Shown one piece after another: positions 1-59,190 of a stretch of 64,000 nucleotides of DNA (position 1 is its first letter; the number at the start of each line of letters is the position of its first letter). A program made the position numbers and the translations under genes. Origin of the DNA: Scenedesmus sp. PABB004 (Eukaryota); NCBI GenBank assembly GCA_014905635.1, contig JABVCE010000014.1:744001-808000 (forward strand). Direction: 5' to 3'. Under the pieces are notes generated by a model, which was given only the letters and a program-made list of their open reading frames with translations, searched no databases and had not been told where the DNA came from.

Positions 1-1209
1 GCTCATGGGCCTGGCTTTGAATGGCCTGCAAGGCGGCGCGGCGGGCCCCGCCGCCCTTGCGCACCTCACGGGGCTGGAGGGCTTGACCCTGCGTGACGTC
101 ACGCTGGTCGACCCGGCCGCGGCGTTCACGCCGCTCACACGCCTCACGAAGCTGATGCTGCAGCTGTGGGAGGGTGGCGACAGCGCCACCACGTCAGCGC
201 TGCTGCGCGTGCTGCCGCGCCTGGCCCGGCTGCAGGACCTGGTCCTGGCCTTTGGGGACCACCGGGTCCTGGCCGGCTGCGCCGAGTCTGCCAGCAGCAT
301 CGCGTCGCTCACACAGCTGTCGCGCCTGGCGCTCCGTGGCAGCGATCTGGCGCCCGACGCGGCGGCGCGCCTGTTTGCGCGCGCGCTGCCGTCGCTGCGT
401 GAGCTGACCATCCAATGCACTGACGAGCCTCCAGGAGTTGTGCTTTCGCAGGCCGAGCTGGGCGCCCTGGTCGGCGCCTGCCCCGGCCTGCACGAGCTGC
501 AGCTTCTGTCAGCTGTCGAGCCGGGCGCGTCCTGCATGCGCCTCGGCCTGCTGAGCGAGCTGAAGTCGCTGCACCCGAGGGGCGACTGCGTGGGCGACGA
601 CGACGCGGCGCGCCTGGCGCGCGCTCTGACCGCGCTGCGGGGCCTCAGCATTTGGAGTGCACCCCGGCTGGGCACGGCCGGCGTGGTCCGCCTGGTGGAC
701 GCGACGCAGCTCACCTCTCTGGTCCTTAAGGATTGCGGCGCCAACTATGCCGGCGACGACGACGATGACGACAGCGGCGACGACGCCGGCGTCCTGCATC
801 ACTACATCAAGCTGCTGCGCACACTGCACTTCATCAAGCTGGTGCGCACAGTGGGCACGGGGCGAGCGGGCTGTCCACTGCTGTCGCTGCCTGCGCTTGC
901 CCGCACGCGCGCCGGCCGTCCCCGCGCCGCCGCAGGAGGACCCGCTCACGGTGTCGCACCAGCTGGAGGAGCTGTGCTGCACCAACGAGGTGCTGTGCAG
1001 GGCGCTGCTGGAGCGCAGGAGCGAGCGGCTGGCGGCGGCGCGCGGTGAGCGCGGGCCGGCGCAGGCGCTGGGCGGCGGGCCTCACGCGGGCGTGCAGGAT
1101 CGGGCGTGCGACGTGCTGCCCCCCGCCTCGCCGCGCAGGCGCGCTGGCAGCCAAGGACAAGAAGCTGGCCGCCAAGGAGCTGCAGCAGCCGGGTGGGGGC
1201 CACGGCTGA
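1..1209 (+). CDS. F-box/LRR/coiled-coil repeat-family gene, copy 1 (5' part lies outside the window)
   Basis: LxxLxLxx repeats ([33 protein letters not shown]). Conserved exon 3 (EDPLTVSHQLEELCCTNEVLCRALL, ~936-1045) and exon 4 (~1139-1209, TGA at 1207-1209). Bases ~24-262 are essentially identical to 22862-23100 in copy 3. Confidence 0.85.
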
Positions 1210-1470
1210 GCGTGGCGGCGGCCGTGCGCAAGCAGCAGGCGCGGGGCGGCGCCGGCGGCGGCGCGGTGGGCGAGGTTGTGCGGGCGTGTCGGCAACTGCG
1301 ACACTTGCTGCCCAGCTGCACACGTCACCGCTCGCTCGTCGCCCGCGGCCAGCCGGCAGCCACGCGCGCACCGCTCGCCGCCTGCACCCTGCAAGGCCCC
1401 GCCCGCACCCTGCAGGGCCCCGCCCGCGACCGCGCCGCGCGCCGCCTGGCGGGTCGCCCCCGCGAGCAGC

Positions 1471-12402: not shown

Positions 12403-12569
12403 GCCTCCCCAGGTGCTGTGCTCACGCGCGCATGCTGACAATACTCGAGCGCGACACCCAGCGCCGCGGGAGGCGTTCTGCTGCGGCCGAGCAGCGGGTT
12501 TGCGCCCGGTGGCGGCTGACGAGCGCCGCGGCGTGGCGGCGGCGGGGGGGGGGGGGGGGGGGGGGGGGC

Positions 12570-15012
12570 GGCGGCGAGTGTGAAGGGCAGCGGCGGCGGC
12601 GGCGGCCGCACCACACGACGGCGGCCGCGCGCGAGCGGCAGGGTCGTGCGCAGAACCGCCGCCGACACTCGAGCACGGGCGCGGCGCAGCCAGGGCGGCG
12701 TGGCGGCCCCGTGGACTCCGCCCCGGCGTCGTTTGCCGCTCGCTCGCTCTCCGCGTCCGTGCTGCCGCTGCCGCCCGCTCGGGCAGCCGCGCCAGGCTCA
12801 ACGCGCACACAGGCCGCACAGCGTATCGCCCCCGCTCTCTCCGATGCTTTGGCAGCGCCTGCTGTCCGCTCAGCCGATCACTTGCGCCCCCCGCCCTGCG
12901 CCCAGCTGCTGCTGCAGCTCTGCCAGCTCGGCGGCCTGCGCCTGCTCCCTCGCGCCCGCGGCCGCCAGCTCCTGGTCCTTGGCGGCCAGCGCCACGTCCT
13001 TGGCCGCCAGCGCGTCTGCGCGGCGAGGCGGCGGGCAGCGCGTGAGACGCCCAATCCCGCCCGCCAGCGTGGCGCCAGCCGCCCAGCGCCCGCGCCGGCC
13101 CCCGCTCACCGCGCGCCGCCGCCAGCTGCTCGCTCCTGCGCTCCAGCAGCTATCCTGCACAGCTCCTCGTCACCGCGGCACCGCTCCTCCAGCTGCTGCG
13201 CGACCGTGGGCGCGTCCTCCTGCGGCGATGCGGCGGGGTCGTGTGTCAGCTGTCGTGTGGAGCAGGCGTGTGGAGCAGGCGTGCAGGCTGCTGCCGCAGT
13301 GGGCGGCCTGAAAGGGCCACTGCCACTCTCGTGGCAGCACAGCTCGACAACACCACAGTCCTCATCGCCACCATCAAAGCCGGTGTCGCAGACAAACAGA
13401 CGCACCAGCCGCGTCGTGTCCACCAGGCTGGCCACGCCGGCCGCGCCCAGCCGCGGCGCGCTGACAACGCTGAGGTGCTGCAGCGCGGGCAGCGCGCGCA
13501 CGAGGGGCACCACGTCGGCGTCGCTCACGCAGTCGCCCCTCAGCCACAGCGCCGTCAGCTCGCTCAGCAGGCTGAGGCGCGCGCAGGACGCGCCCGGCTC
13601 GACAGCTGACATAAGCTGCAGCTCGTGCAGGCCGGGGCAGGCGCCGACCAGGGCGTCCAGCTCGGCCTGCGAAAGCAGAACATCTGGAGGCTCGTATGTG
13701 CATTCGATGGCCAGCTCGCGCAGCGCCGGCAGCGCGCGCGCAAACAGGCGCGCCGCCGCGCCGGGCGCCAACTCGCCGCCAAACAGCACCAGGCGCGACA
13801 GCCGCGTGAGCGACGCGATGCTGCTGGCAGATTCGATGCAGCCGAGAGCGCAGCGCTCGGGAGCGCGTGGCCATGGAACAAAGGTTGGTGAGCGCCGGCA
13901 TGCGCGGCAGCGCCGACAGCACCTCGCCAACCGATGCCCCATCGCAACAGTGCAGGTGCAGCTCGTGCAGGCCGGGGCACAGCAAGCCGGGGGGGGGGGG
14001 GGGGAAGGTGCAGTAGTCCATGTGCAGGCGGGTCAGCGCCGGCAGCATGGCGCCGCCGCCGCCGCCGTCGCCGTGCAGCGCCACGGCCATGTGGTTGCAC
14101 GTCAGGCTGAGCAGCTGGGCCAGTGGCAGCGGCAGCTCCAGCGGCACGTAACGGTAATCGGGGGCGGTGGCGTCTAAGCTCACCACGCCGCGCCCCCGCC
14201 CCGCCAGCCAGCCGCTGAGCGCGGCGGCGCGCTGGGCCGCGCTTCCGACCTCGCCAAACTTCACATGCACCTCCCTGCTGGCCGCGGCCACCGCGTCGGC
14301 CCACACGCGGCACACGAGCGCGGCGGCGCCCAGGCGCTCGCGCACGTCCAGCTCCGCCAGCACGCGTGGCAGCACCTCCGCCGGCAGCCGCGCAAAGGCC
14401 GACGCGCCCTGCGGCACGCGCGGAGAGGCGGCTCAGGGAGGGTCAGGCGCGCAGGTGGCGGGGGACGCTGGCTCGCGCGGGCCGGCCGCGGGCGCGGGGC
14501 GCGCACGCAGCAGCGCGCGCACGCCCCCCGCGCCGCCGCAGGCCGCTGGCGCCCGCCCGTGATCCGTGCTCACCGAATCGCCGGGCTCCATGGGCGCGGC
14601 CCTGCAGGCGGGCCCGGGGCCAGGCGCGGCCGCGGCGGGCGGCGCGGCGCGGGCGCGAGCAGCAACGGCGGCGGCGGCGCCTCCTCGCAGGCGGTGCGCA
14701 GGCGTCGCGTGCGGCGCGGGCGCGAGCAGCAGCGACGGCGCCGCCTCCTCGCGGCCGGGCGGGCCGGGCGGGGCTGCGAGGCGGCACCGTAAGAGGGCGC
14801 GGGCGCCGGAGCACGCGGCGCCGTAGTGGCTCAGGCGGCCGGGGCGGCGGGCGCTGCGCGGTCCCAGCCGCGCGCGGGCGGAGCCGAGCGCCTTGTGCGT
14901 CTGCGGGGCGCCTGGCTGCGGCGCAGGGGCTTGGTGTGACCGGGCTGTGCGGGGCGCTGCGGTGGCGGGGAGGCTGCACGCGCCAAGCCCAGGGCGGTGT
15001 GCGCAGAACCGC
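12570..15012 (-). repeat. Repeat unit copy 2 (F-box/LRR cassette plus spacer; spacer motif at both ends)
   Basis: The motif GCGGTTCTGCGC..C..CCCTG (minus-strand reading) occurs at both ~14990-15012 and ~12640-12660. Homology to the other units runs throughout. Confidence 0.75.
12870..14591 (-). pseudogene. F-box/LRR/coiled-coil gene copy 2 with an internal deletion and frameshifts
   Basis: Micro-exon ATG GAG CCC GGC GAT TCG|GT, then F-box [32 protein letters not shown]. The coding sequence jumps from ..SAALS directly to ..GCIESASS at ~13840 (~360 nt missing relative to copy 7) and is split over several frames. Confidence 0.75.
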
Positions 15013-21289: not shown

Positions 21290-21681
21290 CCCCAGAGACT
21301 GCGGAAGCGAATGCGCGGCGCCGGGCGGGCGCTCGGCGCGGCAATTGGGCGGCGGCGGGCGCAGCAGTCGGCGGCAGCGGCGCCCCACCTGGCGCCCCGC
21401 CGCGGTGCGCACTGATGTCGCCTGCCCTCCGGTTGTGCCCAACATCGTGCGAGCGACGCCTACGCGTGCGGCATGCACTCCGCGGCGCCCGGGCGGCGAG
21501 GAGCGCTGGCGGCCACGGGTCGCTGCGCGGCGGGGAGGGACAGGCGGCGCCGTGTGAGGCGCGGCGGGCGGCGGGAGTGCGGTGCGACCGGGAGCGACCA
21601 GTAGGGACATGCCGCGGCGGCCGGCGGGCGCGTGGCGCCGGCGGTGCAGCGGCGGCGGGCGACGCGCGCCCATTTCCGCAG

Positions 21682-24420: not shown

Positions 24421-24488
24421 GCTGCCCTCCGCTGTGCCCTCCGGTGTGCGCCTTGCGTGCGCGGCAGCAGCGCACGTTCGCCGCCGCG

Positions 24489-30775: not shown

Positions 30776-30929
30776 CGCGTCTCGCGCTGTAGGGCAGATG
30801 CGGAGTGCGGGCGGGCGGCGGGAGCTGCTCGGTGACGCGAATGTGGGCGAATGGAGCGCGGCGTGGCGCCCGGCGCAGCGCAATTGCAATCATCTCTGTT
30901 GGCGGCGCCCGTTCAGCTTCGGCGAATCG

Positions 30930-32674: not shown

Positions 32675-32733
<59 letters not shown>

Positions 32734-36736: not shown

Positions 36737-36771
36737 CGACGACTTGCGGGGCTGGGGCTCGCGCGTGGTGT

Positions 36772-36863
36772 GAGGCAGCGGCAGCTGGCCGCCGAGCTGG
36801 CGGCCGCCGCGCACGTGCTAGCGGCGGAGCTGCAGCAGCAGCTCGGCGCGGGGGCGCAGCTGA
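36772..36863 (+). pseudogene. Isolated last-exon remnant of the F-box/LRR family
   Basis: Encodes [30 protein letters not shown] with no upstream exons. It starts ~35 nt after the methyltransferase stop. Confidence 0.75.
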
Positions 36864-37480
36864 GGGCGTGTGACCGAGCAGGCGCTGCCGCGCGGGAGAG
36901 CCTGCAGCGGGGTTGACATGGGGCGGCCGAGCGTGCGTGCGGTGTGCGGGCGGCTGAGCCGGCCACCGAGCGGGCGGCGGCGGCGGCGCGGATGGGAGCT
37001 GCGGGGCGGGCGGCAGGCAAGCAAGCGAGCGGCAACGGCACCATCGCGCAGAGGGCCCGCCGCGCCGGTCCTGCAGCTCCGCCGCTTCTTCAGCAACCAC
37101 ACCTCGAGCGGCCGGCGCCGCCGGGCCGCGGCGGCGGTTCTGCGCGCACCGCCCTGCCGCGCGCGCCGCAGTCGCCGTGTGGTGCGTCCGCCACGACTCT
37201 GCAACACTCGCGGCAGCCGCCCCGTGCCCACACACCGCGCTCGCCTGCGCCCGCACCGCACACGGCCGTTTGAACTGCGCAGCGCCCGCGCGCGCCCCCC
37301 GGCCGCCTGGTCGCTGCAGCGCCGCGTGCTCCTGCGCCCTCGCCCTCTCCCGGTGCCGCCCCGCAGCCCCGCCCGGCCCGCCCGGCCGCGAGGAGGCGGC
37401 GCCGCCGCCGCTGCTCGCCCCGCGCCGCGCCGCCCGCCGCGGCCGCGCCTGGCCCCGGCCCCGCCTGCAGCGCCGCGTCC

Positions 37481-39613
37481 ATGGCGCCCGGCGATGCGGT
37501 GAGCACGTATCAAGGGCGGGCGCCAGCGGCCGGCAGCCGGCGGCAGCGCGGGGGCCGTGCGCGCGCCGCCGCTGCGTGCGCGCGCGCGCCCGCGGCCGCC
37601 CCTGTGCGAGCCAGCGCCCGCGCCCCCCGCCGGCTGCGCACCTGAGCCTGCGCCGCCCCGGTCACGAGCCGCAGGGCGCGTCGCCCTTTGCGCGGCTGCC
37701 GGCGGAGGTGCTGCCGCGCGTGCTGTCGGAGCTGGACCTGCGCGACCGCCTGGGCGCCGCCGCGCTTGTGTGCCGCGCCTGGGCCGACGCGGCGGCCGCG
37801 GCCAGCAGGGACGTGTGCACAAATTTTAGTGACATTTATAAAGCAGAGGAGCGCGCTGCCGCGCTCAGCGGCTGGCTGGCGGGGCGCGGGCGCAGCGTGA
37901 CGAGCCTGGACACTGCGGGCTGTGGGTGCTACGAGGACCTGGAGCTGCCGCTGCCGCTGCCCCAGCTGCGCAGCCTGAAGTGCTTTCTCACGGGCGTGGC
38001 GCTGCGCGGCGGCGGCGGCGGCGGCGGGTCCCCGCTCCCTGCGCTGACCCGCCTGCACATGGACAGCAGCTATTTGCACACTGGCCTGCTGTGCCCCGGG
38101 CTGCGCGAGCTGCACGTGAACTACTGCAAAGGGGCATCGTTCGTCAGGGTGCTGGCAGCGCTGCCGCACATGCCAGCGCTGACAGAGCTCGTCATCATGG
38201 GCCCCGCCGGCGCGTCGCTCTCGGGCGTGGCCGCGATCTCGGCCGCGGGCGCGCTCTGTGCGGCGGCCGCGCTGACGGGGCTGCGGCACCTGGTGCTGGA
38301 AGTGGACGACGCACCAGGGCCAACGCACGTCCCGCCGCTGCCGCCTGCGCTCACGCGCCTGGAGCTGGACGGCCTGGTCGGTGGCGCGGCGGGCCCCACT
38401 GCCCTCGCGCACCTCACGGGCCTGGAGGGCTTAACCCTGGGTGGTGTCACGCTGTTGGACCCGGCCGCAGCGTTCGCGCCGCTCACGCGCCTGACAACGC
38501 TTTATCTGCGCCTGTGGAAGGGCGGAGACAGGGCTGCCGCCACGTGGGCGCTGCTGCGCGTGCTGCCGCGCCTGGCCCGGCTGCATAACCTGGCCCTTGA
38601 CTTTGGGCGGGACCACCAAATCCTGGCCGGCTGCGCCGAGTCTGCCAGCAGCATCGCATCGCTCACGCGGCTGTCGCGCCTGGTGCTGCGCGGCGACAAG
38701 TTGGCGCCCGGCGCGGCGGCGCGCCTGTTCGCGCGCAGGCTGCCGTCATTGCGTGGGCTGGCCATCTCTTGCACGGTCAGCGGGCCAGGCCCGCGAATGG
38801 CGCAGGCCGAGCTGGACGCCCTGGTTGGCGCCTGCCCTGGCCTGCAGGGGCTGGACCTTTTCAAGACTGCCGAGCCCGGTACAAGCTGCGCGCGCCTCGG
38901 CCTGCTGAGCGAGCTGACGTCGCTGCACCTGGCCGGCGACTGCGTGGGCGACCACGACGCGGCGCACCTGGCGCGCGCGCTGCCTGTGCTGCAGGACCTC
39001 AGCGTAGTCAGCGCGCCGCGGCTGGGCGCGCTCGGCGTGGCCAGCCTGGTGGACGCGACGCGGCTCACGCGCTTGAAGGTGCAGGATTGTGGCTTGGATT
39101 TTGACCTGATATCCCACGTGAGCGGCCGCGGGCGCAGGGCGCCGCAAACGGCCACACGACTGCCCGCTGCACGCCTGCACACGCGCGCCGCCCCCGCCCC
39201 CGCCCACGTCGCCGCAGGAGCACGCGTGGTGGACGGTGTCGCGCCAGCTGGATCGGCTGTGCTGGGCCGACGACTTGCTGTGCAGGGCGCTGCTGGCGCA
39301 CAGGAGCGAGCAGCTGGCGGCGGCGCGCGGTGAGCGGTGGCTGGCGTGGGTGCTGGGCGCACCCTGCCTCGTGCCTGCGCGGGGGACAGAGCGTCTCACG
39401 CGCTGCCTGCCGCCGCCGTGCCCTGCAGACGCGCTGGCGGCCAAGAACCAGGAGCTGGCGGCTGCGGCGGTCACAGGCGCGAGGCAGCGGCAGCTGGCCG
39501 CCGAGCTGGCGGCCGCGGGCGTGAGGGAGCAGCAGCTCGCCGCCGAGCTTGCGGCCGCGCGCGCGCTGGCGGCGGAGCTGCAGCAGCTGGGCGCGGCGCG
39601 CGGGCGCGGCTGA
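37481..39613 (+). CDS. F-box/LRR/coiled-coil gene copy 5 (apparently intact)
   Basis: Micro-exon MAPGDA|GT, then F-box [33 protein letters not shown] and an open LRR exon. Exon 3 EHAWWTVSRQLDRLCWADDLLCRALL; coiled-coil exon 4. Confidence 0.85.
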
Positions 39614-40230
39614 GCGGGCGCGACAGAGCAGGCGCCGCCGCATGCGGGCGCCTGCAGCGGGGGTGAGATGGGGCGGCCGAGCGTGCGTGCGGTGTGCGTG
39701 CGGCTGAGCCGGCCACCGAGCGGGCGGCGGCGGCGCAGATGGGAGCCGCGGGGCGGGCGGCAGGCAAGCGAGCGAGCGGCAACGGCGCCGTCGCGCAGCG
39801 GGCCCGCCGCGCCGCTCCTCCAGCTCTGCTGCTTCCTCAGCAACCTCACCGTGAGCTGCTGGTGCCGCCGGGGCCGGCGGCGGTTCTGCGCGCACCGCCC
39901 TGCCGCGCGCCGCGGTCGCCGTGTGGTGCGGCCGCCGCCACGACTCTGCAACATTCGCCGCAGCCGCCTCGCCGCCACACAGAGCGCTCGCCTGCGCCCG
40001 CGCCGCACACGCACCGTTCGAACTGAGGCCCCGCCCGTCCGCGCCTCCCGGCCCGCCTGTTCGCTGCAGCGCCGCGTGATCGGGCGCCCTCGCCCTCTCC
40101 CGGTGCCGCCCCGCCGCCCCGCCCGGCCCGCCCGGCTGCGAGGAGGCGGCGCCGCCGCCGCTGCTCGCCCCGCGCCGCGCCGCCCGCCGCGGCTGCGCCT
40201 AGCCCCGGCCCCGCCTGCAGCGCCGCGTCC

Positions 40231-42380
40231 ATGGCGCCCGGCGATGCGGTGAGCGCGGATCAAGGGCGGGTGCCAGCGGCTGGCGGCCGGCGGCGGCGCG
40301 GGGGCCGTGCGCGCGCCGCCGCTGCGTGCGCCCGCGCGCCCGCCGCCGCCGTCGCGTGAGCCAGCGCCGCGCCGCCCGCCGGCTGCGCGCCTGACCCTCC
40401 CTGCGCCGCCTCTCCGCGCGTGCCGCAGGGCGCGTCGCCCTTTGCGCGGCTGCCGGCGGAGGTGCTGCCGCTCGTGCTGTCGGAGCTGGACCTGCGCGAC
40501 CGCCTGGGCGCCGCCGCGCTTGTGTGCCGCGCCTGGGCCGACGCGGCGTCCGCGGCCAGCAGGGACGTGTGCATTGAGCTCGGCGAGCATGAACATGCAG
40601 CCCAGCAGCGCGCCGCCGCGCTCAGCGGCTGGCTGGCGGGGCGCGGGCGCGGCGTGGTCAGCCTGGACGTGACCGGCGACGACGAGGATGTGTCGCACTG
40701 GCAACACTGTTGTGTTGAGTTGAAGCTGCTGCTGCCGCTGCCCCAACTGCGCAGCCTGAGGTGTCATCGCATGGACGTGGCCCTGCGCGGCGACGACGGC
40801 GGCGGCGGCGGCGCCCCGCTGCCGGCGCTGACCCGCCTGCACATGGACGAGTGCACCTTCCCCGCCGCCCTGCTGTGCCGCGGCCTGCGCGAGCTGAGCC
40901 TGTACAGTTGCGATGGGGCATCTTCTGACGAGGTGCTGGCGGCGCTGCCGCGCATGCCGGCGCTGACAGAGCTCTTCATCGCTGGCCCCGATGGCTCCTC
41001 GCTCTCGGGGGCGGCGGCGCTCTCAGGCGCGGCCGTACTCTCGGCCGCGGCCGCGGTGACCGGGCTGCGGCACCTGGTGATGTCGTGTTGGGTGTTGCAT
41101 GACAACACGCACGCAACGACCCCTGCCGCCATCCCGCCGCTGCCGCCCGAGCTCACGCACCTGGAGCTGGACGGCCTGGACGGCAGCGCTGCGGGTCCCG
41201 CTGCCCTCGCGCACCTCACGGGCCTGGAGTTTTTGCACCTACGTGACATCACGCTCGTCGACCCGGCCGCAGCGTTTGCGCCGCTCACGCGCCTCTCGGC
41301 GCTGACGCTGGACCTGTGGAAGGGCGGCGACAGCTCCACCACGTCGGCGCTGCTGCGCGTGCTGCCATGCCTGGCCCGGCTGCGGGACCTGCAACTTGAC
41401 TTTGGGGCAGACCACCAGATCCTGGCCGGCTGCGCCGAGTCTGCCAGCAGCATCGCGTCGCTCACGCAGCTGTCACACCTGCGGCTGCGTGGCAGCGATC
41501 TGGCGCCCGGCACGGCGGCGTGCCTGTTTGCGCGCGCGCTGCCGTCACTGCGTAAGCTGCAGATTGCTTGCGTTGAGAGCACGCCAGGCCTGCGACTGGC
41601 GCAGGCCGAGCTGGACGCCCTGGTCGGCGCCTGCCCCGGCCTGCGGCAGCTGCACCTCTTTAAGATTGCCGGCCCAGGCACAAGCTGCGTCCGCCTCGGC
41701 CCGCTGAGCGAGTTGAGGTGGCTGCACCTGGCCGGCGACTGCGTGGGCGACGCCGACGTGGCGCACCTGGCGCGCGCGCTGCCTGTGCTGCAGGACCTCA
41801 GCGTGCGCAGTGCGCTGCGGCTGGGCTCCGCCGGCGCGGCCAGCCTGGTGGACGCAACGCGGCTGAGCCGTCTACAGCTTGCCTTCTGTGGTGTGCAACA
41901 CTGCATCGACGACGATGCCGACATCGACCTGACGTGCGAGGTGCGCGGCGGCGGGCGCGGGGCGTCGCCAACAGCCACGCGGCTGCCCGTCGCACGCCTG
42001 CACACGCGCGCGCCCGCCGCCACACCCCTCGCCCGCGTCGCCGCAGGAGGACCCGCCCACGGTGTCGCACCAGCTGGAGGAGCTGTGCTGCACCAACGAG
42101 GCGCTGAGCAGGGCGCTGGTGGCGCATCAGCGCCAGCAGCTGGCGGCGGCGCGCGGTGAGCGGGGGCCGGCGCTTGCGCCGGGCGCTGTGCCTCGTGCCG
42201 GCGCGGTGGGCTGATCGTCGCACGCGCTGCCTGCCGCCGCCGCCGCTGCCGCCGCGCCCCGCAGACGCGCTGGCGATTGCGGGTGCGAGGGAGCGGGAGC
42301 AGGCCGCCGAGCTGGCGGCCGCGCGCGCGCTGGCGGCGGAGCTGCGGCAGCAGCTAGGCGCGGCGCGCGGGCACAGTTGA
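40231..42380 (+). CDS. F-box/LRR/coiled-coil gene copy 6 (intact; exons 40231-40248, 40429-41940, 42047-42155, 42265-42380)
   Basis: All three introns have GT...AG ends that preserve frame, with a CTGAC branch-like motif at 40391. Encodes an F-box, roughly a dozen LRRs and a coiled-coil tail. Confidence 0.88.
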
Positions 42381-43015
42381 GCGGGGGCGCGACCGAGCAG
42401 ACGCTGCCGCGCGGGAGAGCCTGCATCGGGGACGAGATGGGGCGCCTGAGCGTGCGTGCTGCGTGCGGCTGAGCCGGCCACCGAGCGGGCGGCGGCGCGG
42501 GTGGGAGCCGCGGGGCGGGCGGCAGGCAAGCAAGCGAGCGGCAACGGCACCATCGCGCAGAGGGCCCGCCGCGCCGGTCCTGCAGCTCCGCCGCTTCTTC
42601 AGCAACCACACCTCGAGCAGCCGGCGCCGCCGGGGCCGGCGGCGGTTCTGCGCGCACCGCCCTGCCGCGCGCCGCGGTCGGCGTGTGGTGCGGCCGCCGC
42701 CCCCGCTCTGCAACACTCGCCGCAGCCGCCCCGTGCCCACACACACCGCGCTCGCCTGCGCCCGCACTGCACACGCGCCGGCGCGGCGGCCTGCTGTTCA
42801 AACTTGAAACATCTGCTCGCGCCGGGAGAGCGACCCCGCGCGGCGCCCACGGTCGCAGAGCGCGTTGATCGGACCCCGGAGCATCAGGGGGCAGGCGTGC
42901 GCGACCGCAGCGCAGGCCGCGACCGCGCCCACACCGGGGGCGGCCTCGCTCGCTCCCTGCCGGGGCAGCGCAGCGCCCTGCATGCCGGCGTGACGGGCAC
43001 GGCCGGTGCGTCGCC

Positions 43016-47180: not shown

Positions 47181-47211
<31 letters not shown>

Positions 47212-48700: not shown

Positions 48701-48732
<32 letters not shown>

Positions 48733-52109: not shown

Positions 52110-55100
52110 ATGTTTGACACCGCCATCGTGGGGCTGTGGGTGCCCGCGGTGGTGTTTGCCCACGTCTTCAGCGCCTACTGGTTCATCAGGACCGCCCTGG
52201 TCTACAATCCCGCCGCCTTCTCGCTCCGGCGACGCCCCCGGCCCTCCACGACCGGGCTGCCCGTCAAGGGCGGCGCGGCGGAGCCCGAGGACGAGCGCGC
52301 CGTGGAGGCGGTGCTGGCCGGCGCCAAGGGCAGCCTGAGCGGCGCGCCGCCCCTCATTCGTGAGTGCTGGGAGCTTGCAAGCCTCCCGGGCCGCGTGCCA
52401 GGGCGCCGGGGGCCGTGGGGCCGAGGCGGCCCGCGGCGTTGGCGCGCATCGCGCGGCCGGCCGCCCGACGCGCCCCCGGCGCGCGCCGCAGGCGCAAAGG
52501 TCGTCACCGAGAGCGAGGGCGACGGCTCGGCCGATGGCGGGCCCGGCAAGCGCCCCGGCGGGCGGGCGGCGGCGAGCGTGCAGCGCGTGCACCTGGAGTG
52601 GCAGCAGCTCTGCTGCAGCTACAGCGTCGGCGGCGCCAAGCTGGTGGTGCTGCAGGACGTCTGGGGCTCTGCGGCGCCGGGCGAGATGCAGGTGCGGCGG
52701 CGGCGCGAGCGGCGCGGGCGGCGCGAGCGGCGGCGGCGCGGGCGGCGCGAGCGGCGGCGGCGCGGGCGGCGCGCGCGGCGGCGCGCGGCGGCGCGGGCAG
52801 CCGCCAGCGGCCAGCGCGGCCGGCGCAGCGCAGGCTGGCGGCCGCACAAGGCAGCGGGTGCCGGCCGCACGCTCCTGCAGCCGTGCTGGCGCTGCGCGGC
52901 CCGGCGCGCGCCGCCCACTGGCCCGCGCGCCTGCCTGGCGCCGCGCGCAGGCGCTGCTGGGTCCGAGCGGCGCGGGCAAGTCGACGCTGATGGACATCCT
53001 GGCGCAGCGCAAGAGCATGGGCAGTCTCAGCGGCTTCCTGCTGGTCAACGGCCGCCCCGCGGGCAGCAGCTTCATCCGCAAGACGGCCTACGTGCCCCAG
53101 GTGCGCGCCGGGCGCCGCGCGCAGCGCCCGCTGGCAGCGGCGGCGGCGGCGCCGACGGCGGCAGCAGCAGCAGCTCGGACGGCGGCAGTGCTGGACACAG
53201 CTGTGGCGGCAGCGGCGGCAGCTTGGTCAGCAGCACCGGCAGCGGCGGCGGCGGCGGCGGCGCTCACTTGCCCGCGCCGCCGCGGTCGCCTCCCCGCTGC
53301 CGCCGCTGGTGCCGCCGCCGCGCGCAGGACGACAACTTTGTCGCGACGATGACGACCGCCGAGACGATGGCCTTTTACGCGGACATCATCCTGCCCTCCA
53401 CCTGGACCAAGGCCGACCGCAAGGCGCGCGTGGCCGAGGTGCTGGCGGCCATGGGCCTGCGCCACAAGCACCGCACCATGGTCGGCGGCACGCTGCCGGG
53501 CGGCCTCATGCTGCGCGGCCTCAGCGGCGGCGAGCGCAAGCGGCTCAGCATCGCCGCGGGCATCCTGGCGGCGCCGAGCATTGTGTACCTGGACGAGCCG
53601 ACCAGCGGGCTGGACAGCTTCTCGGCGCTGACCGTGATGGGCTACCTGAAGCGCATGGCGCGCGACAACGGGCACGTGGTGATTGCCTCCATCCACCAGC
53701 CCCGCTCCGCCATCTGGTCCATGTTTGACAAGGTGCGGCGCGCAGCTCTGCCGTGCGGCGGCGGCGGCAGCAGCGGCGGCGGCAGCAGGCGACGGCAGCA
53801 GGCGGCGGCAGCAGCAGACGCCCGTGCGGCAGGCTGGCAGCCGGCCGGGCGCTGACGCGCGCGCGCACCCGCGCCCGCGCCCGCCTCCGCCGCTGCCGCC
53901 GCCCCGTGCAGGTGACGCTGCTGGCGAGCGGGCGGCTGATGTTCCACGGCGCGCGCGACGACCTGGTGCCCTGGTTTGGGCACCTGGGCTACGCGTACGA
54001 CCCCGCGCTGCACGGCGTGGCCTCGGACTGGGCGCTGGACCTGGTGGCCATCGGCTTCCACAAGCCCAAGCGCTTCTACGGCCACACCATCACCACCACC
54101 GAGGAGCTGGCGCGCGCGAGCAGCGAGTTTGTGGCCAGCTACGCCGCCGGGGTCGCGCCCTTTGCCGGCGGCAGCGGCAGCATGATCGGCTCCAAGTCGC
54201 TCGGCCAGAAGATGCAGGCGCGCGTCAACAAGCTCGTTGGCGCGCGTGCCAGCACCGGCGGCGTCGGCTCTGCCGTCATGCCGATGGCCAGCGACACCAG
54301 CAGCGACGGCGACGCTCTGGACTTCCCGAAGGACCTGGTGCCCGCGCTCGCGGCGCCGCGCGGCGGCGCGGACGCGCAGGTGCACGGCGCGCCGCCGCAG
54401 TCCAAGTGGGCGACCGGCTGGTGGCGCCAGTTTGCGTCGTGCTACTGCCGCGAGCTGCTCTCGATCACGCGCAACCCCGCCGACGTCGCTGGGCGCACGA
54501 TGACCTTTGCCTGGGTGGGCATCCTCATGGGCCTGCTCTACTACGGCATGCCCAGCGACGCGAGCAGCATCCGGGGGCGCCTCAACATGACCTTCAACAA
54601 CCTGGTCTTCTTCTGCCTCATGCCCTACGTCTCGATGAGCCTCTACTGCGCCGACAAGAAGTTTTACCTCGCCGACGCGAGCGCCAAGCTCTACCGCCCG
54701 CACGCGTACTACGCGGCCAAGGTGCTCGCCATCACGCCGTTCCACATCATCTCGGCGCTCGTCTTCACGTTCACCATCTACGGCATGACCGGCCTGCGCC
54801 CCGGCGGCCGCTTCATCCTGCAAAACGGCACCATCTCCACGCTGCTGCTGCTCATCTCGTCGCAGGTGCGGCGGCCAGCGGTCGTGCGGGCTGCGTTCTG
54901 CGCGATGCGCTACGCTGCACTGCGCTGCGCCGCGCGCCGCCGCGGCCTGAGCCCCGCGCCGCCGCGCCGCCGCGCCGCCGCGCCGCCGCGCCGCCGCCGC
55001 CAGGTGCTGCACGCGTGCGCGATCATCGCGCCCAACCAGGACGTCGCGTTCATGCTGAGCATCGTGTGGACGGCGGTGCAGCTGTTCTTCAGCAACTACT

Positions 55101-55480
55101 TCATCCTCTTCACGCAGGTCAAGCTCTCGGGCATCACCTTTTTCCGCTGGGGCTCGGCGCTCTGCTACGCGTTTGAGGGCATGCTCGTGACCGAGTTTGG
55201 CGGCATGCGCTACCGCTGCGACGGCGGGCTCGACGCCGCGTCGCTGAGCATGCTGCGCACGCTGCTGCCCGGCAACCGCTGGCTCAGCATGCCCGCCGTC
55301 GTGGCGGGGCTCGAGCGCCCCGGCGCCGACTGCGTCGCCGACACCGACGCGGTGCTGGACTACTACGGCTTCCGCCAGCCCTTCACCCACACCTTTGGCA
55401 TCCTGCTCGGCTACCTCGCCGTCTGCCACGCCGCGACGTACGCGGCGATGATCGCCGTCGCGCGCCACGAGCGCCGCTGA
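52110..55480 (+). CDS. ABCG (White-type) half transporter, paralogue A, multi-exon
   Basis: Walker [11 protein letters not shown]-loop AYVPQ|DD, signature [12 protein letters not shown], Walker [19 protein letters not shown], and a C-terminal ABC2 membrane domain. There is an extra N-terminal TM segment. Confidence 0.93.
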
Positions 55481-56080
55481 GCGGGAGCGCCGCCGGGCGG
55501 CCGCGCGCTCGGGGGAACGGCGCGGCGGCGGCGCGCGGGGCACGCGCGGCGTGCGCAGCGTGCGCGGCGTGCGCGCGTGATCTGTCAATCCTCGGCCGCT
55601 GATCAGCAAACCCAATCTTGCGTGTGCGCGTGCTCCCCGGCGTGCCCGGCGGCGCCTGTGCATGCGGCGCGGGCGGCGCACCGGGGAGGGGAGCGGGCCT
55701 TCTTTCACGACGGGACTGCCTTGGAGGGGTGTGCGACCAACGGCAGCCACGCTCCGCTCGCGGCAGCGGCCGGCGGCGGTTCTGCGCGCCCCCAGCCCGC
55801 ACACTCGCCGCAGCCGCCTGGTGCCACACTCTGCGCTCGCCTGCGCCACGCCGCACACACACGCCAGTTCGGACTGTGCAGCGCCCGTCCGCGCCCCCCG
55901 GCCGCCTGGTCGCTGCAGCGCCGCGTGCTCCGGCGCCCTCGCCCTCATCCGCTGCCGCCCCGCAGCCTCGCCCAGCCCGCCCGGCCGCGAGGAGGCGGCG
56001 CCGCCGCCGCTGCTCGCGCCCGCGCCGCGCCGCCCGCCGCGGCCGCGCCTGGCCCCGGGCCCGCCTGCAGCGCCGCGCCC

Positions 56081-58498
56081 ATGGAGCCCGGCGATGCGGT
56101 GAGCACGTATCATGGGCGGACGCCAGCGGCCGGCGGCCGGCGGCGGCGCGGGGGCCGTGCGCGCGCCGCTGCGTGCGCCCCCGCGCCCGTGGCCGCCCCC
56201 GCGCGAGCCAGCGCCGCACCCCCGCCGACTGCGCGCCTGACCCTCCCTGTGCCGCCCCGGTCACGAGCCGCAGGGCGCGTCGCCCTTTGCGCGGCTGCCG
56301 GCGGAGGTGCTGTCGCGCGTGCTGGCGGCGCTGGACCTGCCCGAGCGCCTGGGCGTCGCCGCGCTCGTGTGCCGCGCCTGGGCCGACGCGGCGGCCGCGG
56401 CCAGCAGGGACGTGTGCATAGAGCTTGGCGAGGCCGACAGTACGGCCGAGCGCGCCGTCGCGCTCAGCAGCTGGCTGGCGGGGCGCGGGCGCGGCGTGAC
56501 CAGCCTGGACGTGACCGGCGGCTACGTGGTGCAGTTGAAGCTGCCGCTGCCGCTGGCCCAGCTGCGCAGCCTGTTGTGCTATTGCATGGACGTGGCGCTG
56601 CGCGGCGACGACGGCGGCGGCGGCGACGCCCCGCTGCCTGCGCTGACCCGTCTGGACATGGACGAGTGCACCTTCCCCGCTGCCCTGCTGTGCCGCGGCC
56701 TGCGCCAGCTGCGTCTGAACTACTGCATAGGGGCATCGTCTGAAGAGGTGCTGGCGGCGCTGCCGCGCATGCCGGCGCTGACAGAGCTCATCATCGCTGG
56801 CCACGCGCTCGACAGCGCCGCGCTCTCGGCCGCGGCCGCGGTGACGGGGCTGCGGCGGCTGGTGCTGTGTATGTACGGCGCACCAGGGCCAATGCACGTC
56901 CCGCCGCTGCCGCCCGCGCTCACGTGTCTGGCTTTGGACGGCCTGAAAGGCGGCGCGGCGGGCCCCGCTGCCCTCGCGCACCTCACAGGCCTGGAGTGCT
57001 TGTCCCTGCTTGAGGTCGTGCTGGTGGACCCGGCTGCAGCGTTCGCGCCGTTCACGCGCCTCATGACGCTTCATCTGCACCTGTGGTCCAGCGACAGGGC
57101 TGCCACATCGGCGCTGCTGCGCGTGCTGCCGCGCCTGGCCCGGCTGCATGGTCTGGCCCTTGACTTTGCGGCAGACCACCAGATCCTGGCCGGCTGCATC
57201 GAATCTGTCAGCAGCATCGCGGCGCTCACGCGGCTGTTGCGCCTGGTGCTGCGCGGCGACGAGTTGGCGCCCGGCGCGGCGGCGCGCCTGTTTGCGCGCA
57301 TGCTGCCGTCACTGCGTGGGCTGACCATCTCTTGCGCTGTCAGCGGGCCACGCGTGCGGCTGGCGCAGGCCAAGCTGGACGCCCTGGTCGGCGCCTGCCC
57401 CCGCCTGCGGGGGCTGAAGCTCTCGCATGCAGTCGAGCTCGGCACAAGCTGCGCGCGCCTCAGCCTGCTGAGCGAGCTGAGAGCGCTGAACCTGGCCGGC
57501 GACTGCGTGAGCGACGACGACGTGGCGCACCTGGCACGCGCGCTGCCTGTGCTGCAGGACCTCAGCGTTGTCAGCGCGCCGCGGCTGGGCGCGCTCGGCG
57601 TGGCCAGCCTGGTGGACGTCACGCGGCTGAGCCGTCTCCAACTCGCCGACTGCGGCGTGCAAGAATACTTCGACGATGATGGCGACATCGAGTTGACGTG
57701 GAAGGTGAGCGCGGCGTGCGCAGGGCGCCGCAAACGGCCACGCAACTGCCCGCTGCACGCCTGCACACGCGCGCGACCGCCCCTCGCCCGTGCCGCCGCA
57801 GGAGGAGCACGCGTGGTGGACGGTGTCGCGCCAGCTGGAGGAGCTGTGCTGCACCAACGAGGCGCTATGCAGGGCGCTGGTGGCGCGAAAAAACGCGCAG
57901 CTGGCGGCGGCGCGCGGTGAGCGGCGGCCGGCGCGGGCGCTGGGCGCCGCGCCTCGTGCCGGCGCAGGGGACAGAGCGTCTCACGCGCTGCCCGCCGCCG
58001 CCGCCGCCGCGCCCCGCAGACGCGCTGGCGGCTAGGTGGCAGCAGCAGGCCGCCGAGCTCGCGGCTGCACGTCAGTGGCTCCAACAGCAGGCCGCCGAGC
58101 TCGCGGCTGCACGTCAGTGGGGGCAACAGCTCGCCGCCGAGCTCGCGGCTGCGGGCACGAGGGAGTGGCAGCTGGCCGCGGAGCTCGCGGCTGCACGTCA
58201 GTGGGGGCAACAGCTCGCCGCCGAGCTCGCGGCCGCAGGCACGAGGGAGTGGCAGCTGGCCGCCGAGCTCGCGGCTGCACATCAGTGGGGGCAACAGCTC
58301 GCCGCCGAGCTCGCGGCCGCAGGCACGAGGGAGTGGCAGCTGGCCGCCGAGCTCGCGGCTGCACATCAGTGGGGGCAACAGCTCGCCGCCGAGCTCGCGG
58401 CCGCAGGCACGAGGGAGTGGCAGCTGGCCGCCGAGCTGGCAGCCGCGCGCGCGCTGGCAGCGGAGCTGCAGCGGCTGGGCATGGGCGCGGCCGAGTGA
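56081..58498 (+). CDS. F-box/LRR/coiled-coil gene copy 7 (intact, expanded coiled-coil tail)
   Basis: Micro-exon MEPGDA|GT, F-box and LRR exon, exon 3 [16 protein letters not shown], and exon 4 with ten AAELAAA units. Confidence 0.85.
58038..58450 (+). repeat. Coding minisatellite: 42-nt module with an 84-nt higher-order period
   Basis: [27 protein letters not shown](R/H) occurs four times, preceded by two single 14-aa units. Confidence 0.92.
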
Positions 58499-59190
58499 GC
58501 GGGGGCGAACGCAGAGGCTGGTGTGTGGCCACGGAGCGTTGCACGCCGCACGGCACGGGCAGAATCCAGGCAGCTATGCACAGACGAGGGGCCGCCCGCA
58601 GCTGGCGCGACACCCGCTCAGGCCGGCGCAATGCGTGCGAATGTGGGCGTCAGCAGCAGTTGAGCGGGCCGGCCGAGCCGGCGGGCAGGGCGCCCGCCGC
58701 CCTGGTGCGCGGCATGCCGCGGGTGCGCAGCACGCCGCGGCGCCGGCCACAGGCAATACAGAGGGGGTTCGTCGACATTCGTGCCCGCCCACCGCCCCCA
58801 TCCCATCCCAGCCCCAGCCGGCCAAGGCGCGCTGCGCGTGCGGCCGCCCGCGCGTGGGCGCCGCCCGCCGCTACCAGCACATCCCCAGTGCCGCGCTGCG
58901 TGGTGCAGCCTTCAAGTTTGATCGCTCGGCGCCGCAGCACGCACTCGCAGCCCCCACCTAGCGCAGCGCGCGGCGGCGCGCTGGCACCGCCGCGCGCGCT
59001 CGGCCGCCCGCCTGCCTGCCGGCAGGGCACCCTGCACCAGCCGCCTTCACCCTGCATCCAGCCCGGCCGCCGCCCGGCCCGGCCTCCCTCGCCGCGCTGC
59101 AGCAGGCGCGTGCCGGCGGCGCACCACGCCCCCACGCTGGCCGTGCAGCATGCCGCCGGCCCGGCAGCGCTCAGCGGGTCTCAGCGGGTC

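Follow-up and report, generated by a model that had tools for sequence, protein, structure and literature searches.

Seven diverged F-box/LRR gene copies among housekeeping genes of Scenedesmus sp. PABB004: a probable lineage-specific cluster of substrate receptors

COI1, TIR1 and D3/MAX2, in which an N-terminal F-box is followed by a long LRR solenoid, are conserved hormone co-receptors that are not known to be arranged in clusters. Plant NLR and Cf-type LRR resistance genes occur in clusters that evolve by birth-and-death, vary most at the x residues of the xxLxLxx motif and exchange sequence. The gene-carrying DNA transposons include Pack-MULEs and Helitrons with captured genes, which are delimited by TIRs with TSDs or by defined Helitron ends and in most cases contain parts of genes. 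The “unstable” FBA and FBK F-box subfamilies of land plants are outlined in PMC3719486 as lineage-specific and often tandem or closely linked, with purifying selection on the F-box and positive selection on the target-binding domain, and the same outline has the FBA-subfamily protein absent from most algal genomes. The expanded F-box families of nematodes are summarized as having the same pattern of lineage-specific expansion and selection (10.1101/2020.07.09.194670).

The window analyzed here, a stretch of 64,000 bases from a very GC-rich green alga, contains seven diverged copies of an F-box/LRR gene interspersed among housekeeping genes. The unit is about 2.75 kb long and nucleotide identity between copies is 72-87%. 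The reference unit, to which all q-coordinates refer, is copy 6 (39615-42380, 2766 bp counted from 39615); used as a BLASTN query against the window it returns 18 HSPs, the 17 non-self ones at 72.8-87.1% identity. Self-BLAST places the repeats at 1-1200, 12556-14755, 21681-24437, 30928-33723, 36762-42780 and 55797-58508, a total of 17,684 of the 64,000 bases (27.6%), in agreement with a first-pass annotation that had described seven cassettes filling more than a quarter of the window in the orientations + - + - + + + for copies 1-7. Its coordinates hold to within about 20 bases except at the 5' end of copy 2, which it put at 15012 and which a more sensitive pairwise BLAST moves to about 14914; the same search extends the 5' limit of copy 7 to 55759.

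Every unit comprises a complete gene, laid out as a conserved promoter/5'UTR region of about 250 bp, an 18-nt exon, a large exon, two short tail exons and a 3' flank; its product has an F-box, about 15 LRRs and a coiled-coil tail built of 14-residue repeats. The 18-nt micro-exon, noticed in the first-pass annotation, is present in all six copies that have their 5' part inside the window and is followed by GTGAGC in each, its peptides in copies 2-7 being, in the order reported, MEPGDS, MEPGDA, MDTGDT, MAPGDA, MAPGDA and MEPGDA. The introns and non-coding DNA said to be shared do align: all three introns do so with conserved GT/AG sites, as does the 5' flank, and copies 2-6 can also be aligned across the 3' flank or spacer. 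Because introns, promoter region and 3' flank have been duplicated too, the copies are not retrocopies of spliced mRNA, as had been argued, and the duplication took place at the level of DNA.

The proposed architecture of F-box, LRRs and coiled coil is supported. An F-box-like match exceeds the Pfam cut-off of 24.3 bits in each of the six copies that hold the region (25.7-33.6 bits), and the AlphaFold2 model of copy 6 exon 2 (pLDDT 88.8, pTM 0.89), a check that had been suggested for the F-box and the LRR solenoid, shows the helices of an F-box and, after them, a beta/alpha solenoid. Its best Foldseek matches are COI1-ASK1, TIR1-ASK1 and D3/MAX2-ASK1 (PDB 3ogk, 2p1q, 6bro, 9kkx; E 4.5e-13 to 1e-9, probability 1.00), at identities of only 12-19% and TM-scores of 0.30-0.48; its ESM Atlas neighbours are F-box/FBXL clusters. 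Unlike these co-receptors, the family in the window has a hypervariable binding face among clustered paralogues and a C-terminal coiled-coil tail, whose repeats remain in frame although their number ranges from about 1 to about 10. A 758-aa antisense ORF without a Pfam match also runs across the cassette; with such an ORF present, and at 78% GC, open frames are weak evidence.

The copies lie between genes identified by Pfam, among them SUV3, IleRS and DNA polymerase alpha, as had been annotated, together with a papain-type protease, an ankyrin ORF, an acid phosphatase and a methyltransferase; the single-copy status that had been claimed for the first three holds within the window, by self-BLAST. 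Four copies are intact (4, 5, 6, 7), two are damaged (2, 3) and one runs off the window edge (1). Copy 1 (1..1209, + strand by BLASTN), truncated on the left, retains the 3' part of exon 2 with LRRs (ORF 2-1045; Pfam LRR_At5g56370 at 32.1 bits, cut-off 27), exon 3 (936-1044) and a short exon 4 with a stop (1139-1209). Copy 2 (12556..14914, - strand; first exon 14574-14591) still has the F-box (ORF 13377-14432, 25.7 bits) and is probably a pseudogene: its LRR region has a deletion of about 450 bp plus a frame change, and its exon 3 is 110 nt long, whereas four of the other six have 109, so that its phase is off by one base relative to exon 4. About 24 consecutive Gs (+ strand) stand at the 3' end of this copy. 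Copy 3 (21681..24437, + strand; F-box-like 32.2 bits; exon 1 21995-22012, exon 2 from 22196, exon 3 23688-23796, exon 4 23896-24074) has a 1-base deletion in the F-box near 22316, a frameshift that could be either genuine or an assembly error. Copy 4 (30928..33723, - strand; exon 1 33254-33271, exon 2 31586-33073, exon 3 31379-31487, exon 4 31055-31281; F-box-like 26.7 and LRR_At5g56370 32.5 bits) starts 110 bp downstream of the acid phosphatase stop codon.

Copies 5 and 6 are a tandem pair within a head-to-tail array on the + strand. Its left end, 26 bp past the methyltransferase stop, is what remains of a lost upstream copy (36762..36871, by BLASTN), namely the final ~110 bp of its exon 4, followed by copy 5 (36872..39613; exons 37481-37498, 37675-39117, 39218-39329 and 39429-39613; F-box-like 32.2 bits) and copy 6 (39614..42380; exons 40231-40248, encoding MAPGDA, 40429-41940, 42047-42155 and 42265-42380), which encodes a protein of 584 residues, with the F-box and about 15 LRRs in exon 2. 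A partial third spacer (42381..42780, the first ~400 bp of a unit) closes the array, positions 36767-37268 and 42282-42780 matching at 88%, and the first recognizable DNA polymerase alpha domain begins about 300 bp further on. Copy 7 (55759..58508, + strand; exons 56081-56098, 56274-57704, 57802-57916 and 58020-58498; F-box-like 28.6 bits) is without the shared 3' flank, and its exon 4 is enlarged by 9.5 copies of a 42-bp (14-residue) repeat (58038-58437) with an 84-bp higher-order period (97% match). It is bracketed by an inverted pair of ABCG-type ABC transporter genes, which the first-pass annotation does not mention: the left arm (52568..55481, + strand) ends at the stop codon, and it and the right arm (59190..62063, - strand) share 83-97% identity, depending on the segment, with 91-97% in the four longest. 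Local duplication is active in this window, in the form of the tandem pair with the remnant of a third copy and of the inverted ABCG duplication.

The variation among copies is greatest on the predicted target-binding surface of the protein. With x and scaffold positions of the LxxLxLxx motif set from the outgroup protein P0002 alone, the mean pairwise amino-acid difference is 0.572 in x columns, 0.075 in scaffold columns and 0.243 in other columns; at least three residues occur in 41 of 70 x columns versus 43 of 274 elsewhere (Fisher p = 3e-12), and 6 of 42 scaffold columns are variable. In the modelled structure such positions with at least three residues make up 41% of strands, 10% of helices and 18% of loops. 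The dN/dS ratio is 0.16 in the scaffold (CI 0.04-0.38), 0.98 elsewhere and 1.29 at x positions (bootstrap CI 0.94-1.82, so that an excess over 1 is not significant on its own), and ratios close to 1 outside the scaffold would also be compatible with strongly relaxed constraint. The F-box hardly varies, and the LRR coding part has diverged more (mean identity 79.7%) than the 5' flank (85.3%), intron 1 (88.6%) or the F-box (89.5%), although homogenization, and not constraint, could explain why the 5' part has diverged so little. The copies are also mosaic: which partner is nearest switches from one stretch of the unit to another, and some patches have 93-98% identity. A PHI test signals gene conversion between copies, the observed statistic being 0.486 and the mean under permutation 0.526 +/- 0.007, with none of 2000 permutations as low; all ten pairings among five copies are backed by 15-38 informative sites. 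The earlier designation of a diversified receptor family fits this combination of conserved F-box and leucine scaffold, hypervariable beta-strand x positions and mosaicism.

Close homologues were found solely in Scenedesmus sp. PABB004. The nearest, KAF8061386.1 (P0003, with a coiled-coil tail) and KAF8061379.1 (P0002, whose gene model is fused to an alcohol dehydrogenase), lie on one contig with accession numbers seven apart and are 57-69% identical to the window copies, neither being identical to any of them; KAF8062024.1 (P0004), a DHHC fused to two tandem F-box-LRR units, belongs to a more remote subfamily (E 1.5e-48) and is likewise identical to no window copy. In a FastTree phylogeny the window copies group together to the exclusion of P0002 and P0003 (support 0.966), and neither of these two known outside relatives is interleaved with them.

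Several explanations other than a family of functional genes can be weighed against these data. Identity of 72-87% across 2-2.7 kb at E = 0 is not due to chance, and that the copies are an assembly artefact of collapsed or duplicated contig pieces can practically be dismissed, because duplication in assembly would yield near-identical copies, while these differ by 13-28% with differing indels and repeat numbers; each copy has unique flanks, and a metagenome contig bridges the array junction at 42780 with 0 mismatches (42716-42989). It is very improbable that the family is functionless and decaying, a set of old duplicates drifting neutrally with frames left open merely by the rarity of stops at 78% GC. 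Whole-exon dN/dS of 0.78-1.29, the frame-breaking lesions in copies 2 and 3 and the frequency of long meaningless ORFs in this DNA would agree with such decay, but it does not account for the low dN/dS and few variable columns of a scaffold that was defined from an outgroup, the near-invariant F-box, the first exon and splice sites retained in all copies, the tail repeats kept in frame through changes in number, or the clustering of variation on a single structural face.

The first-pass annotation had suggested a non-autonomous DNA-mobilized element, which would be a host-like gene moved by a transposase or Rep supplied in trans from another part of the genome. In its favour, the 64 kb contain seven copies, in a genome given as repeat-poor in the figures of PMC12571836 (1.31% repeats); they lie in both orientations and between unrelated genes, three of their 5' ends and three of their 3' ends cluster around one motif in a segment of the unit about 110 bp wide, and a host-like gene multiplied without a transposase ORF inside the copy recalls Pack-MULEs and Helitrons. 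Unlike those, however, the F-box units are whole genes with promoter and 3' flank, coinciding with the unit limits, and pairwise BLAST and junction comparison show copy limits that vary between copies and no shared sharp termini. As had been noted, no TIR is present at any copy end, no TSD at the junctions examined, and no transposase, integrase, RT or Rep/helicase domain by Pfam in the 358 window ORFs. The copies are, moreover, old and form a single local clade, with both known outside relatives more distant. The unit is therefore not supported as a transposon, and mobilization in trans is improbable. Somewhat less improbable, though still doubtful, is the re-insertion into nearby breaks of unit-length DNA derived from the array, either as a circle excised through recombination between neighbouring units or by replicative template switching, which would be expected to leave circularly permuted single units and would amount to semi-mobile spread of a host gene family with no transposase. 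The dispersed copies 2, 3 and 4 are each circularly permuted and within 61 bp of the 2766-bp unit, although opened at two places: copy 2 spans from about q350 to q362 of the next unit (+12), copy 3 from q312 to q362/373 (+50 to +61), with a stretch around ACACTCGCCGCAGCCGCC at both ends (21681-21745 and 24376-24437), and copy 4 from q158/164 to q122/127 (-31 to -42). Both orientations, short distances and the lack of TIRs and TSDs agree with re-insertion, and the adjacent inverted ABCG duplication suggests fold-back or template-switch events in the region. Against it, the end points are places of fading similarity, fuzzy by tens of bases (weak similarity extends upstream of the copy 3 start at 21681 to about 21616); a compact genome may retain whole genes only, which would bias copies toward unit length; a monomer circle leaves terminal redundancy unexplained; and copy 7, without q9-q286, copy 1 and the array ends (the array begins at q2648) do not fit. 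Simple tandem duplication does not explain whole units in both orientations between unrelated genes, nor does random segmental copying predict three unit-length copies at two phases.

The copies are quite likely a lineage-specific paralogous cluster of F-box/LRR substrate receptors of SCF ubiquitin ligases, evolving by birth-and-death, and not a transposon, although two of the six fully visible copies are broken, which counts against it. Units would have multiplied as DNA from a head-to-tail array like the extant one at 36762-42780 and been placed in both orientations into nearby intergenic gaps, perhaps by local template switching or re-insertion of array-derived DNA; birth-and-death since then would have left four intact copies, two damaged and one not fully visible, while patchwise gene conversion, inverted copies included, would continue. 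The cluster resembles the land-plant FBA/FBK and nematode F-box families as a closely linked, lineage-specific expansion, but it has an LRR interaction domain and a chlorophyte host, and its copies are interspersed with housekeeping genes and not gathered in a single array. It resembles NLR and Cf clusters in its hypervariable solvent-exposed x positions, mosaic paralogues and mixture of intact and broken copies, but it is without an NB-ARC, TIR or kinase domain, its output domain being an F-box. In this reading the F-box and leucine scaffold stay conserved, and change is fastest at the x residues exposed to solvent on the LRR beta-strands; the F-box would dock on Skp1/Cullin, and the variable concave LRR face would bind differing proteins, which would then be ubiquitinated. 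The targets may be rapidly changing proteins, such as those of pathogens or selfish elements, so that an immune or a selfish role is conceivable for the family; with an F-box as output, binding is predicted to end in degradation of the target instead of in signalling.

Self-comparison of the window yields, besides short GC-rich simple sequence, only two kinds of repeat: the F-box/LRR/coiled-coil gene units, referred to here as cassettes, and a pair of inverted arms. The cassettes occupy 1-1200, 12556-14755, 21681-24437, 30928-33723, 36762-42780 and 55797-58508, a total of 17,684 of the 64,000 bases (27.6%), and comprise seven gene units, numbered as copies 1 to 7 along the forward strand. When copy 6 (39615-42380), whose 2766 bp are taken as the reference unit, is compared with the window by BLASTN, 18 HSPs are obtained, of which the 17 non-self matches are 72.8-87.1% identical. 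The first-pass annotation had claimed seven dispersed cassettes making up more than a quarter of the window, and both statements are borne out, the search recovering every place that it listed; its coordinates are accurate to ~20 bases, the one exception being the 5' limit of copy 2, which finer pairwise alignment extends to ~14914; the same alignment shifts the corresponding limit of copy 7 to 55759. Chance and assembly duplication can be ruled out because the copies are 72-87% identical to one another, a level that contradicts the annotation's own alternative that they were duplicated in the assembly.

The DNA of the window is eukaryotic and its composition extreme, GC amounting to 72.5-82.6% per 2-kb segment. 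Runs of GCC/GCT triplets, which code for poly-Ala or poly-Gly, occur at 48585-48871 in the DNA polymerase alpha gene, at 61340-61566 in an ABCG transporter arm and at 32656-32748 in exon 2 of copy 4 (about 20 Gly); such runs are typical of so GC-rich a genome and are the source of many spurious repeat families. A (GTGA)n microsatellite of ~170 bp lies at 16355-16526 within the isoleucyl-tRNA synthetase region and is presumably intronic. Homopolymers are found at 21790-21815 in the 5' flank of copy 3 (~22 C, where the other copies have ~6 C at the equivalent site) and at 12545-12568 at the 3' end of copy 2 (~24 G on the + strand).

Read directly, copy 6 is a four-exon gene on the + strand that encodes a protein of 584 residues. 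Exon 1 (40231-40248) consists of ATG GCG CCC GGC GAT GCG and is followed by GTGAGC, exon 2 (40429-41940) is preceded by CCGCAG, exon 3 lies at 42047-42155, and exon 4 (42265-42380) terminates with TGA. The 18-nt first exon, which had been described as a shared micro-exon, is indeed present in all six copies whose 5' part falls inside the window (MEPGDS, MEPGDA, MDTGDT, MAPGDA, MAPGDA and MEPGDA), and introns 2 and 3 can be aligned at their donor and acceptor sites in all seven. Exons 3 and 4 encode a helical tail rich in Ala, Glu, Leu and Gln and built of 14-residue (42-bp) repeats, the number of which varies among copies with the reading frame always preserved: copy 6 has one or two, copies 3 and 5 have three each, copy 4 has four, and copy 7 has about ten. 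In this last copy 9.5 repeat copies are detected by TRF at 58038-58437, with an 84-bp higher-order period and a 97% match, and the in-frame expansion of the 42-bp repeat is recent.

Four of the copies (4, 5, 6 and 7) are intact. Copy 3 carries a single-base deletion in its F-box, which may be genuine or a mistake of the assembly; in copy 2 ~450 bp of the LRR region are missing, with a change of frame, and the phase of exon 3 is off by one base; copy 1 is truncated by the window edge. An antisense ORF of 758 aa at 38749-41022 (-) spans copies 5 and 6 and has no Pfam match, so that at 78% GC a long open frame is of little evidential value. At 36762-36871 the last ~110 bp of an exon 4 survive as a remnant 26 bp past the stop codon of the methyltransferase gene, whose 3' UTR must therefore enter cassette-derived DNA, and copy 4 likewise starts 110 bp past the acid phosphatase stop.

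The predicted proteins combine an F-box with leucine-rich repeats. The PF12937 F-box-like domain exceeds its curated Pfam cut-off of 24.3 bits in all six copies that hold the region (25.7, 32.2, 26.7, 32.2, 33.6 and 28.6 bits in copies 2 to 7), and its residues are nearly invariant among copies, which would fit retention of the predicted interaction with Skp1. The LRR family PF24758 is matched by copy 1 (32.1 bits) and copy 4 (32.5 bits; cut-off 27), and PF23598 (LRR_14) reaches 39.3 bits in copy 6, just below its cut-off of 40. The first-pass annotation had proposed structure prediction as a check for an F-box and an LRR solenoid, and a confident AlphaFold2 model of copy 6 exon 2 (mean pLDDT 88.8, pTM 0.89, 61 aligned sequences) contains both, in the form of F-box helices followed by a solenoid of ~17 short strands alternating with helices. 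The top-ranked Foldseek matches to this model in the PDB are COI1-ASK1, TIR1-ASK1 and D3/MAX2-ASK1, with E values from 4.5e-13 to 1e-9, identities of 14-19% and TM-scores of 0.30-0.48, and the neighbours of the cassette protein in the ESM Atlas are F-box/FBXL clusters. The nucleotide-binding domain that marks NLR immune receptors is lacking, no Pfam match to NB-ARC or NACHT being found in any cassette ORF.

How the copies have evolved can be judged from the distribution of divergence along the unit, expressed for each feature as mean identity over all comparable copy pairs. This amounts to 85.3% in the 5' flank, 88.6% in intron 1, 89.5% in the F-box coding part, 79.7% in the LRR coding part, 79.5% in intron 3 and 64.8% in the 3' flank (80-89% among copies 3-6), so that the LRR coding part is more diverged than the 5' non-coding DNA of the same unit. 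For exon 2 as a whole dN/dS is ~1 (0.78-1.29), an average which masks two opposite signals. These are separated when LRR positions are set from the outgroup protein KAF8061379.1 (P0002) alone, in which [LIVMF]xx[LIVMF]x[LIVMF] motifs are recognized, 14 in all, with five x positions per repeat. Pairwise amino-acid difference among six window copies is 57.2% at x positions, 24.3% at other positions and 7.5% in the leucine scaffold; at least three different residues occur in 41 of 70 x columns as against 43 of 274 others (Fisher p = 3e-12), and only 6 of the 42 scaffold columns vary at all. The dN/dS ratio is 0.16 in the scaffold (CI 0.04-0.38), 0.98 elsewhere and 1.29 at x positions, where a crude Nei-Gojobori count on four recombining copies gives a bootstrap 95% CI of 0.94-1.82, with 94.3% of bootstraps above 1, and the excess over 1 is not significant. 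The raw non-synonymous difference at x positions is 0.357, which is 2-3 times the divergence of intron 1 or the 5' flank in the same four copies. On the structural model, the positions with at least three residues make up 41% of strand, 10% of helix and 18% of loop residues. This is unlike the drift of a dead gene: the pattern is that of a family which retains its fold and its ligase-docking head and alters its predicted binding face, and the hypervariability of the x positions against a conserved F-box and scaffold upholds the earlier claim of a diversified receptor family.

The copies have not diverged independently, for the nearest partner of each switches along the unit. For copy 1 this partner is copy 3 (97-98%) over 41199-41420 in copy-6 coordinates and, a few hundred bases on, copy 2 (91-92%); copies 3 and 5 share one patch at 95%, and copies 2 and 4 are 93% identical around intron 2. 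The PHI statistic, computed on 218 informative sites in copies 3-7, is 0.486 against a permuted mean of 0.526 (sd 0.007), none of 2000 permutations being as low, and all ten pairings of the five copies are backed by 15-38 sites each. Sequence has therefore been exchanged between loci, including those holding copies in opposite orientation.

The first-pass annotation had read the cassettes as a mobile family, observing at the same time that they lack a transposase, integrase, reverse transcriptase or Rep/helicase ORF, that no TIR or TSD is evident, and that the retained introns argue against retroposition. The observations hold and the mobile-element reading does not. A Pfam scan of 358 ORFs (113 of at least 50 aa with GC3 excess and all 245 others of at least 130 aa, leaving aside 267 ORFs of 50-129 aa without GC3 excess) detects no transposase, integrase, reverse transcriptase or Rep/helicase domain in the unit, and none in the rest of the window except helicase-type matches, which fall in the SUV3 gene only. 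Terminal inverted repeats are absent from the four copies searched with their flanks, in which only internal GC-rich low-complexity pairs of 70-85% complementarity are seen, and no target-site duplication is present at the junctions read. The copy termini moreover differ from copy to copy. In unit coordinates, where q1 is the base after the upstream stop codon and the unit is 2766 bp long, the 5' ends fall at ~q158-164 (copy 4), ~q286 (copy 7), ~q312 (copy 3) and ~q350 (copy 2), and the 3' ends at ~q9 (copy 7), ~q122-127 (copy 4), ~q362 (copy 2), q362-373 (copy 3) and, after copy 6, ~q402. A DNA transposon of the TIR type, including non-autonomous and Pack-type forms, is not supported, given the lack of TIRs in the four copies searched, of common sharp ends and of TSDs at the junctions read, and neither is a Helitron or other rolling-circle element, helicase matches being confined to SUV3 and 5'-TC/3'-CTRR termini not being common to the copy ends. 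A retrocopy is rejected, as the three introns are kept in every copy where they are visible and there is no poly(A) tract at the copy 3' ends. Scans for tRNAs and Rfam families place no feature at the cassette ends; one ARAGORN call of tRNA-Pro(GGG) at 51698-51772 (-), which has no Rfam match at gathering score, is probably a false call in GC-rich DNA. Two further candidate features were dropped, a putative poly(A) signal TGCAA in the spacer, which is not conserved in copies 2, 3, 4 and 7, and a bias of the copies to sit just downstream of a same-strand gene (four of five in the window), which is not significant.

The features of tandem and segmental duplication are present, in the form of a head-to-tail array and the duplication of an unrelated ABCG gene. 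The array (36762-42780) is a plain one of 2.18 units with co-linear spacers; its left end lies inside the exon 4 of a lost copy, 26 bp past the methyltransferase stop, and its right end ~300 bp ahead of the first recognisable DNA polymerase alpha domain. Since the array spacer runs co-linear both with 3' flanks (those of copies 2, 3, 4 and 6) and with 5' flanks (those of copies 2, 3, 4 and 7), the dispersed copies look like pieces of the array, and not the reverse. The ABCG transporter gene forms an inverted duplication (52568-55481 on the + strand and 59190-62063 on the - strand) whose arms are 83-97% identical by segment, the four longest segments being 91-97% identical, and which is younger than the divergence of the cassettes. 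Copy 7 lies between the two ABCG genes, both of which point towards it; each arm stops where the stop codon of its gene lies, and the 3.7-kb spacer between the arms consists of copy 7 together with 277 bp and 681 bp of unique DNA. Complete genes have thus been duplicated as DNA, without the hallmarks of a transposon, in a birth-and-death process that has left intact and broken copies side by side.

Three of the dispersed copies have almost exactly the length of one unit though opened at different places, copy 2 exceeding the 2766-bp unit by 12 bp and copy 3 by 50 to 61 bp, and copy 4 falling short of it by 31 to 42 bp; a stretch around ACACTCGCCGCAGCCGCC occurs at both ends of copy 3 (21681-21745 and 24376-24437). 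Such lengths would be expected neither of segments copied at random from an array, which should be of any size, nor of a longer insert that has collapsed, of which anything from nothing to a full unit should be left over. Survivorship may account for them, in that only whole genes with a promoter and a 3' end would persist in a tightly packed genome, useless remainders being eroded. The other explanation, judged quite improbable, is a unit-length intermediate, either a circle excised from the array or a template switch spanning one unit. The positions of the copy ends are uncertain by tens of bases, and copies 1 and 7 do not fit.

Among 1.84 billion cluster representatives a family HMM detects 3062 proteins at E <= 0.001, of which only two reach E <= 1e-30, both from Scenedesmus sp. 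PABB004: P0002 and KAF8061386.1 (P0003). They are 57-69% identical to the window copies, and P0003 ends in a coiled coil resembling the cassette tail. In the protein tree, which includes only these two outside sequences, the window copies group together as a single clade (support 0.966) and both relatives fall outside it, an arrangement which local amplification or local homogenisation would predict and genome-wide transposition would not. P0002 and P0003 share one PABB004 contig and are seven accession numbers apart, and in a third protein, KAF8062024.1 (P0004), a DHHC gene is followed by a tandem pair of units from a more distant subfamily; close spacing with intervening genes therefore seems typical, to judge from the accession numbering. 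The public model of P0002 joins an alcohol dehydrogenase to one F-box-LRR unit, and that of P0004 joins a DHHC palmitoyltransferase to its two. Very short intergenic gaps have probably led the annotation into error in both cases. This matters for annotation, as two of the three PABB004 relatives are modelled as fused to unrelated upstream genes.

The PABB004 genome is characterized, in the text available from PMC12571836, as a Sphaeropleales outlier with 78.5% GC, 39.8 Mb and 1.31% repeats, and the window shares this unusual GC content of ~78%. When the DNA polymerase alpha exon and the acid phosphatase ORF served as queries in protein searches, green-algal homologues were recovered and no PABB004 protein, the best named matches being to Haematococcus (39%) and Tetradesmus obliquus (64-65% identical), respectively; the best matches of window genes outside the cassettes, as with the acid phosphatase, are to Scenedesmaceae. 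Of 251 candidate stretches in JGI metagenome contigs, 2 could be confirmed, and each matches the F-box only, at 48% identity. Two freshwater-metagenome runs from one study contain 0.09 and 0.07 of the sampled words of the window, and their contigs over 30001-50000 (~230-520 bp) include some that are near-identical and many that differ by 10-16% over cassette DNA. Unique parts of the window are matched with 0 mismatches at 42716-42989 and with 4 at 35714-35952. The near-identical contigs indicate that the same or a very close alga was present in that freshwater material; no empty site could be read from the contigs over 30001-50000, where the sides of the joints are 20-40 letters long at 80% likeness and untrustworthy.

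F-box/LRR proteins are the substrate receptors of SCF ligases, as exemplified by TIR1, COI1 and Skp2. By analogy with such established proteins, the cassette F-box would bind Skp1 and the concave LRR face would bind a protein target, which would then be ubiquitinated and degraded. The pattern of variation suggests that the targets differ between paralogues and change fast, and targets of this kind point to, without establishing, conflict with viruses, parasites or selfish elements, or a self/non-self system. A fuller proposal, which is tentative and rather unlikely, is that the cluster belongs to a degradation-based intracellular recognition repertoire of a green microalga, directed at viruses, parasites and selfish elements and expanded by the re-insertion of single units released from the array. 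Hypervariable F-box-LRR receptors would hand bound foreign proteins to the SCF ligase, and units, each bringing its promoter and 3' flank, would leave the head-to-tail array by way of circles one unit long or of template switches spanning one unit, and would be inserted again into intergenic gaps nearby; if so, new receptor loci would arise without disturbing the packed housekeeping genes.

In its details the variation of the cassette LRRs matches that of plant resistance-gene clusters. The cassette family also resembles the unstable F-box subfamilies of land plants, for which the text available from PMC3719486 describes tandem clusters in which the F-box is conserved and the interaction domain is under positive selection, with the FBA subfamily missing from most algal genomes; it resembles in evolutionary pattern the nematode F-box genes as well, for which the same pattern is described in the available part of 10.1101/2020.07.09.194670. 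Full-text searching of the accessible literature found no report of a hypervariable F-box-LRR cluster in a green alga. The cluster is therefore a known kind in a new lineage, with a dispersal mode that is unexplained; it is not a new kind of element. Of the two halves of the interpretation first placed on it, the receptor family stands, on its conserved head and scaffold and hypervariable face, and the mobile element is not supported, transposon hallmarks being absent.

To our knowledge, the recognition of viruses and parasites inside unicellular green algae is largely an open subject. The cluster is a good and testable candidate for a green-algal intracellular recognition repertoire, its nearest known relatives belonging to a cultured strain, and it offers concrete candidates for such recognition in a compact family with a conserved ligase-docking head and a face that varies as plant resistance genes do. 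It also indicates that a small, reportedly repeat-poor algal genome is able to harbour a locally amplified, recombining gene cluster, and if the permuted unit-length copies are re-inserted array DNA, they would provide a natural example of the spread of a receptor family without a transposase.
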